NCBI RefSeq assembly: GCF_003790525.1
Contig: NZ_CP033633.1
Reading direction: 5' to 3' (one strand)
DNA from: Escherichia coli
Lineage (GTDB): Bacteria; Pseudomonadota; Gammaproteobacteria; Enterobacterales; Enterobacteriaceae
Length of the DNA stretch: 64,000 nt
Below, in pieces: positions 12,135-13,672 of this stretch (within the stretch, counting starts at the first letter, position 1; every line of letters starts with the position of its first letter). The notes under the pieces were generated by a model that worked only from the letters and a program-made list of their open reading frames with translations, searched no databases and was not told the origin of the DNA. The translations under genes and the position numbers were made by a program.

Positions 12135-13672
12135 ATGAACGACATCTCTTCTGACGACATCTTCCTGCTGAAACAGCGCCTGGCCGAACAGGAAGCGCTG
12201 ATCCACGCCCTGCAGGAAAAGCTGAGCAACCGTGAGCGCGAAATAGACCATCTGCAGGCGCAGCTGGATAAACTCCGCCGGATGAACTTCGGCAGTCGTT
12301 CCGAAAAAGTCTCCCGCCGTATCGCACAAATGGAAGCCGATCTGAACCGGCTTCAGAAAGAGAGCGATACGCTGACTGGTAGGGTGTATGACCCGCAGTA
12401 CAGCGTCCGTTGCGTCAGACCCGCATCCGTAAGCCGTTCCCTGAATCACTACCCCGTGACGAAAAGCGACTGTTGCCTGCGGCGCCGTGCTGCCCGAACT
12501 GCGGCGGTTCACTGAGCTATCTGGGCGAGGATACCGCCGAACAGCTGGAGTTGATGCGTAGCGCCTTCCGGGTTATCCGGACGGTACGGGAAAAACATGC
12601 CTGTACTCAGTGCGATGCCATCGTGCAGGCACCTGCACCTTCGCGGCCCATCGAGCGGGGTATCGCCGGACCGGGGCTGCTGGCCCGCGTGCTGACCTCG
12701 AAGTATGCAGAGCACACCCCGCTGTATCGCCAGTCAGAAATATACGGCCGGCAAGGTGTGGAGCTGAGCCGTTCACTGCTGTCGGGCTGGGTGGATGCAT
12801 GCTGCCGGCTGCTGTCTCCGCTGGAAGAGGCGCTTCATGGCTATGTCATGACTGACGGCAAACTCCATGCCGATGATACCCCGGTCCAGGTACTGATGCC
12901 GGGTAATAAGAAGACGAAGACCGGGCGGTTGTGGGCGTATGTTCGTGATGACCGCAATGCCGGGTCAGCGTTGGCACCTGCAGTGTGGTTCGCTTACAGC
13001 CCGGACAGAAAAGGCATCCATCCGCAGACTCATCTTGCTTGCTTCAGCGGTGTGCTGCAAGCGGATGCGTACGCCGGGTTCAACGAGCTGTATCGCAATG
13101 GTGGGATAACGGAAGCTGCCTGCTGGGCTCATGCCCGCCGAAAGATCCACGATGTGCACGTCCGCATCCCGTCAGCACTGACGGAAGAAGCCCTGGAGCA
13201 GATCGGTCAGTTGTACGCCATAGAGGCGGATATAAGGGGAATGCCGGCAGAGCAGCGGCTTGCTGAACGTCAGCGAAAAACGAAACCGCTGTTGAAATCC
13301 CTGGAAAGCTGGTTGCGTGAAAAGATGAAGACCCTGTCGCGACACTCAGAGTTGGCGAAGGCGTTCGCGTACGCACTTAACCAGTGGCCGGCACTGACGT
13401 ACTATGCGAACGATGGCTGGGTGGAAATCGACAACAACATCGCTGAAAATGCCCTGCGGGCGGTAAGTCTGGGTCGTAAAAACTTCCTGTTCTTCGGCTC
13501 TGGCCATGGTGGTGAGCGGGGAGCGCTACTGTACAGCCTGATAGGGACGTGCAAACTGAATGACGTGGATCCAGAAAGCTACCTTCGCCATGTGCTTGGC
13601 GTCATAGCAGACTGGCCGGTCAACCGGGTCAGCGAACTGCTTCCGTGGCGCATAGCACTGCCAGCTGAATAA
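12135..13672 (+). pseudogene. IS66-family transposase (TnpC) split by a frameshift (ORFs 12135-12515 and 12410-13672)
   Basis: N-terminal leucine-zipper segment and CxxC/DDE body lie in different overlapping frames. Confidence 0.7.

Follow-up and report, generated by a model that had tools for sequence, protein, structure and literature searches.

For IS679 and IS66, Han and co-workers reportedly established in 2001 that all three ORFs are required for transposition and that insertion is accompanied by an 8-bp target duplication. IS66 elements make 8-bp duplications, and homologous recombination among IS66 copies is documented to leave mismatched, 'mix and match' flanks (PMC6778807). The locus analysed here, at positions 11269–13709 of a 64-kb stretch of E. 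coli DNA (the window, meaning that whole stretch), is a structurally complete copy of ISEc8, a member of the IS66 family, on a large plasmid. The explanation that accounts best for the sequences compared, and that we consider very probably correct, is that the transposase gene of this copy, tnpC, has been inactivated by an inherited 1-bp deletion (ΔG), and that the allele has spread mainly by recombination between ISEc8 copies. The frameshift itself is already flagged in the public annotation, and the gene is a routine example of a pseudogenised IS transposase.

Structure of the ISEc8 copy and its tnpC gene

A megablast search of complete E. coli genomes with 11200–13760 matched 6962 records, 10 of which (all from RefSeq) are 100% identical to the element together with its flanks. 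The element is matched at an identity of at least 99% in 3706 records, and the name ISEc8 is assigned here through RefSeq feature names ('IS66-like element ISEc8 family transposase', tnpA, tnpB), the features so named being 99.2–100% identical. Copies with unrelated flanks align to the window at 11269–13709 only, which defines the limits of the element. Identity to intact copies is 99.8%, and the element is one base shorter than the intact copy (2441 bp versus 2442 bp). The features of the element are as follows.

11269–13709, plus strand: complete ISEc8 (IS66 family), 2441 bp; boundaries set by the homology limits against differently flanked ISEc8 copies
11269–11290, plus strand: left terminal inverted repeat, GTAAGCGTACAGCCTGAACCGT; inverted-repeat arm 11266–11290
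11361–11741, plus strand: tnpA, IS66 accessory protein, intact, 126 aa (Pfam HTH_Tnp_1; NCBIfam NF047595)
11738–12085, plus strand: tnpB, IS66 accessory protein, intact, 115 aa (Pfam TnpB_IS66; NCBIfam NF033819)
12135–13672, plus strand: tnpC, DDE transposase gene, frameshifted pseudogene (PGAP 'frameshifted'; split ORFs; restored ORF of 512 aa)
12135–12515, plus strand: ORF of the truncated product, 126 aa; 87 native residues including the leucine-zipper region, then 39 out-of-frame residues and a stop
12394–12395, plus strand: site of the 1-bp deletion, after codon 87; GG in intact copies, G here
12395–13672, plus strand: remainder of tnpC in the original frame (zinc finger, DDE domain, C-terminal element; Pfam)
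12410–13672, plus strand: C-terminal ORF, 420 aa (ORF list for 9500–16000)
13688–13709, plus strand: right terminal inverted repeat, ...GCTGTACGCTTAC; inverted-repeat arm 13688–13712

Inverted repeats, GTAAGCGTACAGCC... and ...GCTGTACGCTTAC, form the ends of the element and start with 5′-GTAAGCG, as is typical of IS66/ISEc8; the 25-nt arms (11266–11290 and 13688–13712) are 80% complementary. The termini are conserved across loci, and the right end is conserved also among loci whose right flanks differ. The genes tnpA, tnpB and tnpC lie consecutively on one strand in the IS66/ISEc8 arrangement, with tnpA and tnpB overlapping in the tetranucleotide ATGA (read from the sequence). TnpA scores 94.6 bits against the NCBIfam model for IS66 TnpA (NF047595, cut-off 74), while TnpB matches Pfam TnpB_IS66 with an E-value of 1.2e-38 and scores 120 bits against the model for IS66 TnpB (NF033819), above its cut-off. 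In a byte-identical record, the two genes are annotated as encoding the widespread proteins WP_001171523.1 and WP_000612591.1. Consistent with the original prediction, which had called orf1, orf2 and both ends intact, both accessory genes are whole and both terminal inverted repeats are complete.

The same prediction had described an IS66-family transposase split by a frameshift into overlapping ORFs at 12135–12515 and 12410–13672. Both ORFs are present in the ORF list with exactly these coordinates, and Pfam, NCBIfam and RefSeq names confirm the family and specify ISEc8. Pfam places LZ_Tnp_IS66 at residues 39–83 of the first ORF (2.4e-08) and zf-IS66 (2.7e-13), DDE_Tnp_IS66 (7e-107) and DDE_Tnp_IS66_C (8.9e-17) in the second, indicating that the two ORFs together represent one IS66-family TnpC, the first its N-terminal and the second its C-terminal part, with leucine zipper, zinc finger and DDE domain all present.

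As an intact reference, we used plasmid pMTY9803_IncBOKZ of strain TUM9803 (NZ_CP135672; locus L002), in which ISEc8 occupies the identical plasmid site, between a truncated IS1414 and the relE/parE–copG pair and upstream of eitA, and in which tnpC is uninterrupted (1539 bp, encoding WP_000997962.1). A global alignment of the window with this locus contains four differences within the element, namely SNPs at 11746, 12233 and 12349 and a single indel, a G absent at window position 12395 (CCCGGCAG becoming CCCGCAG). The predicted frameshift is therefore a true 1-bp deletion, which places the TnpC domains on two reading frames. Re-insertion of the G yields a continuous TnpC of 512 aa that scores 457 bits against the NCBIfam model for IS66 family transposases (NF033517, cut-off 180). 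In the byte-identical copy in NZ_CP063494 (IQS14_RS27450), PGAP annotates an 'IS66-like element ISEc8 family transposase, frameshifted', at coordinates equivalent to 12135–13672. An otherwise unsupported minus-strand ORF of 153 aa (12051–12512), antisense to the 5′ part of tnpC, was taken as a by-product of the coding strand.

Distribution, genomic context and spread of the ΔG allele

The 81-mer 12355–12435, which spans the deletion site, was searched in E. coli records. Matches occupy about 9600 places in 4474 records, and 42 of these records contain the exact frameshifted form; 4428 other records match at 95–99% identity, and among the matches listed all align over 82 bases, i.e. with the extra G. 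The 42 exact records, from poultry, cattle, humans and wastewater on several continents, comprise about a dozen plasmids with the context of the window and about thirty chromosomes. The recurrence of the same deletion in many independent assemblies, at a mere GG dinucleotide, points to an inherited allele rather than a random assembly error. Judged by this distribution, ΔG is an inherited allele that about a dozen related plasmids have in common with a copy on a chromosomal island. A literature search found no report on this frameshifted ISEc8 allele.

The segment 6454–24026 of the window is collinear with plasmid pEF5-18-41_2 (NZ_CP063494; chicken, Laos) at 99.9% identity. Relative to that record (loci L009 and L010), the window is a mosaic, with blocks 1–6977, 23893–26924, 26901–29465 and 29457–31807 inverted or relocated, and the corresponding block edges in the NZ_CP063494 plasmid bear annotated IS1 and IS3 copies. 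Large conjugative E. coli plasmids, NZ_OY754359 (hen) being the best match, have transfer, partition and leading-region genes that correspond to segment 31001–56000. Neighbours annotated in the matching record include colicin M with its immunity gene, ccdAB, a phytase-like esterase, relE/parE–copG, a serine recombinase and an eitABCD-type transporter, the last of which marks ColV/ColBM-like virulence plasmids of avian E. coli. The host plasmid is an avian-type virulence plasmid closely related to poultry E. coli plasmids. The features surrounding the element are as follows.

5253–6100, plus strand: second junction of an IS1414 remnant with ISEc8, containing ISEc8 bases 1–70 only (blastn within the window)
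9100–10473: phytase-like esterase gene, adjoining the IS1414/ISEc8 cluster
10527–11268, minus strand: IS1414 (IS256 family) transposase gene, truncated and frameshifted, abutting the left end of ISEc8 (PGAP of the identical record; ORFs)
13811–14086, minus strand: relE/parE-family toxin, directly to the right of ISEc8
14086–14370, minus strand: CopG-family antitoxin, beside the toxin
14871–15461: serine recombinase, beyond the antitoxin
15816–19856: eitABCD-type siderophore ABC transporter and MFS exporter

The 8 bp to the left of the window copy (11261–11268, CATCCAGT) differ from the 8 bp to its right (13710–13717, TCTCCTAC), so the copy is not bordered by an 8-bp duplication. Whether a target duplication is present reflects the history of an insertion, not the nature of the element itself. 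The abutting IS1414 is truncated, and its missing part does not resume on the other side of ISEc8. Mismatched flanks together with a truncated IS1414 that has no continuation point to deletion or ISEc8–ISEc8 recombination rather than simple insertion.

We compared termini, flanks and SNPs at 17 ΔG loci, 12 of which have both ends intact. No 8-bp target duplication was found in any of these 12, to which the window copy belongs. Most chromosomal ΔG copies have a common right junction (...GCTTAC/aactcagc...) to an IS3-family element, beyond which, in the loci fetched with wider flanks, lies a PhoX-family gene. This one right junction in most chromosomal copies indicates inheritance of a single island locus (the IS3/PhoX island). 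The left side of the island copies varies, with three different sequences abutting an intact left end, and others have a shortened left end, truncated at ISEc8 base 232 (L011), 62 (L016 and L018) or 98 (L017), the truncated end adjoining another IS66-family element in L011 and L017. Strain CM2 (L003) combines one of the island left flanks with a different right flank, and strain 26561 (L007) and the plasmids have yet other flanks. In total, the ΔG copies that keep the corresponding end have five left flanks and four right flanks.

The SNP blocks on the two sides of the deletion vary independently (left, 11308C/11330A/11428A/11461A/11735A; right, 13368A/13579T), as fits a spread via recombination between ISEc8 copies. 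The ΔG allele thus appears to have moved between contexts mainly by ISEc8–ISEc8 homologous recombination and not by transposition. Recombination or gene conversion, together with inheritance of the island and of the plasmid, is the simplest reading of the spread, and transposition of the defective copy is not needed to account for it. Recurrent mutation could also give rise to several SNP backgrounds. For the plasmid copy, it is possible that the deletion was brought in by a gene-conversion tract.

The four positions at which the window copy departs from its intact counterpart at this plasmid site (11746, 12233, 12349 and 12395) cluster within 650 bp of the 2441 bp of the element; 11746G and 12349G match the chromosomal ΔG haplotype, and 12233T is private to the plasmid lineage.

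Two further observations concern sequence common to plasmid and chromosome. First, the window contains a direct repeat, 5253–6100 and 10493–11338 (98.9% identity over 848 bp; blastn within the window), the upstream copy of which is cut at ISEc8 base 70 by other IS-related sequence, ISEc8 bases 1–70 corresponding to 6031–6100. The sequence past 6100/6101 (gaagtgcgccccaatagttag) is the reverse complement of that abutting ISEc8 base 62 in the chromosomal ΔG copies of strains CH4804 and EC21Z-147 (L016 and L018; around position 1976). This match at the split suggests that one ancestral ISEc8 was divided by another IS, leaving one half as the plasmid fragment and the other as the island copy; the overlap of ~8–9 bp (bases 62–70) resembles the target duplication that such an IS would have made, which would connect the plasmid with the chromosomal island. 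A third IS1414 fragment is present at 57065–57323. Second, the chromosomal ΔG ISEc8 of strain 26561 has, at a distance of about 200 bp, a gene (L007, 5404–6762) that shares its product name with the plasmid esterase gene, and window 10269–10495, just downstream of the esterase gene, equals L007 5382–5608 at 99% identity, indicating that part of the esterase/ISEc8 module is common to plasmid and chromosome.

An alternative account of the several sites is that an intact ISEc8 routinely mobilises the ΔG copy in trans, as a non-autonomous element. Complementation in trans had been part of the original prediction, and we know of no demonstration or test of an IS66-family TnpC acting in trans. As the ISEc8 copy keeps tnpA, tnpB and its inverted repeats, it would at most be a passive substrate for the TnpC of another ISEc8, and it would remain a source of homology for recombination. 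The genomes that carry ISEc8 have a median of 4 and a maximum of 46 matching places, and ΔG copies with different flanks have junctions exactly at the element termini; on this evidence, mobilisation in trans of some ΔG copies, with later loss of their target duplications, is conceivable. Against routine mobilisation, matching 8-bp flanks were seen in no ΔG copy examined, most chromosomal copies share the one right junction of an inherited locus, and left and right flanks recombine independently, as homologous recombination between IS copies predicts (PMC6778807). A donor inside the window was considered and rejected: tblastn with the restored TnpC finds this locus only, i.e. no other IS66-family transposase in the 64-kb window, and the only other ISEc8 sequence that blastn finds there is the 70-bp left-end fragment at 6031–6100. 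We consider routine mobilisation in trans unlikely. Of the predicted complementation, the part concerning intact ends, tnpA and tnpB stands and makes it plausible, but the complementation itself is unsupported, with no tnpC of the family elsewhere in the window and target duplications in 0 of 12 copies.

Coding capacity of the split gene

Translation from the tnpC start to the shift would give 87 native residues, containing the coiled-coil/leucine-zipper part, followed by 39 unrelated residues and a stop. The normal frame past codon 87 runs out of register to the stop codon at 12513–12515, so the deletion at 12394/12395 leaves no uninterrupted transposase frame. The zinc finger, the DDE catalytic domain and the C-terminal element would not be made, and with zinc finger and DDE domain out of frame the ISEc8 copy would be unable to supply its own transposase. 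The expectation that the element is 'probably not autonomous' is thus well supported by the predicted product.

A return to the original frame would take a −1 shift. A scan of all frames of the overlap, 12395–12515, revealed no X_XXY_YYZ slippery heptamer, and no in-frame TTG, ATG or GTG in the overlap is preceded by a Shine-Dalgarno sequence. Likewise, the candidate in-frame restarts (TTG 12410, TTG 12473, TTG 12551 and ATG 12554) have no Shine-Dalgarno-like sequence upstream, and the first in-frame ATG (12554) lies downstream of the first zinc-finger CxxC, which would be lost on a restart there. A programmed −1 frameshift or an internal restart was rejected for lack of a heptamer and of a Shine-Dalgarno-preceded start in 12395–12515. 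The locus also differs from programmed frameshifting of the IS1/IS3 type in that the motif is missing and in that ~99% of the E. coli records with the 81-base segment have tnpC in a single frame. We infer that a functional transposase is not produced from the frameshifted tnpC.

Several ΔG copies have decayed further. An additional 1-bp deletion is present at 13515 (L004) or 13522 (L005 and L015), and the tnpC of L017 is annotated as 1537 bp, one base shorter still, as in those three copies. L007 and L014 have lost about 150 bp and about 25 bp internally, and in L008 tnpB carries an insertion of 2 bp. These second lesions fit an absence of purifying selection on the downstream frame and speak against the split gene being functional. 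With only the single lesion, the window copy could be reverted by one +1 insertion.

Two kinds of residual function can be imagined. In the first, the free leucine-zipper peptide (87 + 39 residues) might bind full-length TnpC encoded elsewhere and damp transposition, or might retain some activity together with a weakly restarted C-terminal fragment. If true, such an effect could help to explain the persistence of the allele on plasmids and on the chromosomal island. With translation signals missing, the allele rare (~1% of records) and secondary decay under way, we regard interference or cooperation of this sort as very doubtful.

In the second, the split gene itself would be functional, −1 recoding providing low-level TnpC or the leucine-zipper peptide and the DDE part acting as two polypeptides. 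The shift, after residue 87, falls just past the LZ_Tnp_IS66 match, the ΔG allele occurs in several genomic contexts, and an independent leucine-zipper ORF has been reported in IS66 elements of some Bacilli (PMC3971601). This account is at odds with the missing heptamer and Shine-Dalgarno sequences, the loss of the first CxxC on restart at 12554, the uninterrupted gene in ~99% of records, the downstream second lesions and the lack of a target duplication in every ΔG copy examined, and it seems to us barely tenable.

Single-base indels are the commonest long-read assembly error, and an intact allele occupies the same plasmid site in TUM9803 and two further plasmids; nevertheless, the view that the G was lost through faulty sequencing or assembly of this record, the true gene being intact, is rejected as exceedingly improbable, because the run is a GG dinucleotide and no long homopolymer, because 42 records, which come from many different laboratories, hosts and countries and comprise plasmids as well as chromosomes, have the identical deletion, and because the deletion is linked to shared SNPs and further decay, an error in this one assembly being excluded indirectly, by this population evidence only.

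Relation to described elements

For annotation, tnpC is best marked as a pseudogene, as RefSeq does for identical copies, and the element is best regarded as a non-autonomous ISEc8 copy that can still serve as homologous sequence when this mosaic virulence plasmid is rearranged by recombination. Members of this plasmid group can conveniently be recognised as a lineage by the deletion in combination with the private SNP 12233T, and the deletion also links the plasmid copy to the chromosomal island copy, illustrating IS-mediated plasmid–chromosome exchange. Otherwise, the finding is of little wider interest, the element being an ordinary copy of the common E. coli ISEc8.

The closest described relative is the intact ISEc8 of NZ_CP135672 (TnpC WP_000997962.1) and of E. 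coli O157:H7 chromosomes, with which the window copy shares 99.8% identity over the whole element, the gene order and the GTAAGCG... repeats, and, in TUM9803, also the insertion site. The window copy differs from it in the G missing at 12394/12395, as a result of which TnpC is truncated after 87 native residues, and in the linked SNPs at 11746, 12233 and 12349. Among the frameshifted ISEc8 alleles in RefSeq, the plasmid copies are byte-identical to the window copy, whereas the chromosomal copies of the IS3/PhoX island have the same deletion but other flanks, other SNP backgrounds and, often, added lesions. IS679 and IS66 resemble the window copy in having three genes with tnpC as the DDE transposase, but the window copy is without a functional tnpC and without an 8-bp duplication. 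Finally, the IS66-family elements of some Bacilli resemble it in having separate coding regions for the leucine zipper and the DDE part; there, however, the split is a conserved arrangement (PMC3971601), whereas in the window it results from a rare 1-bp deletion that leaves the second part without translation signals.
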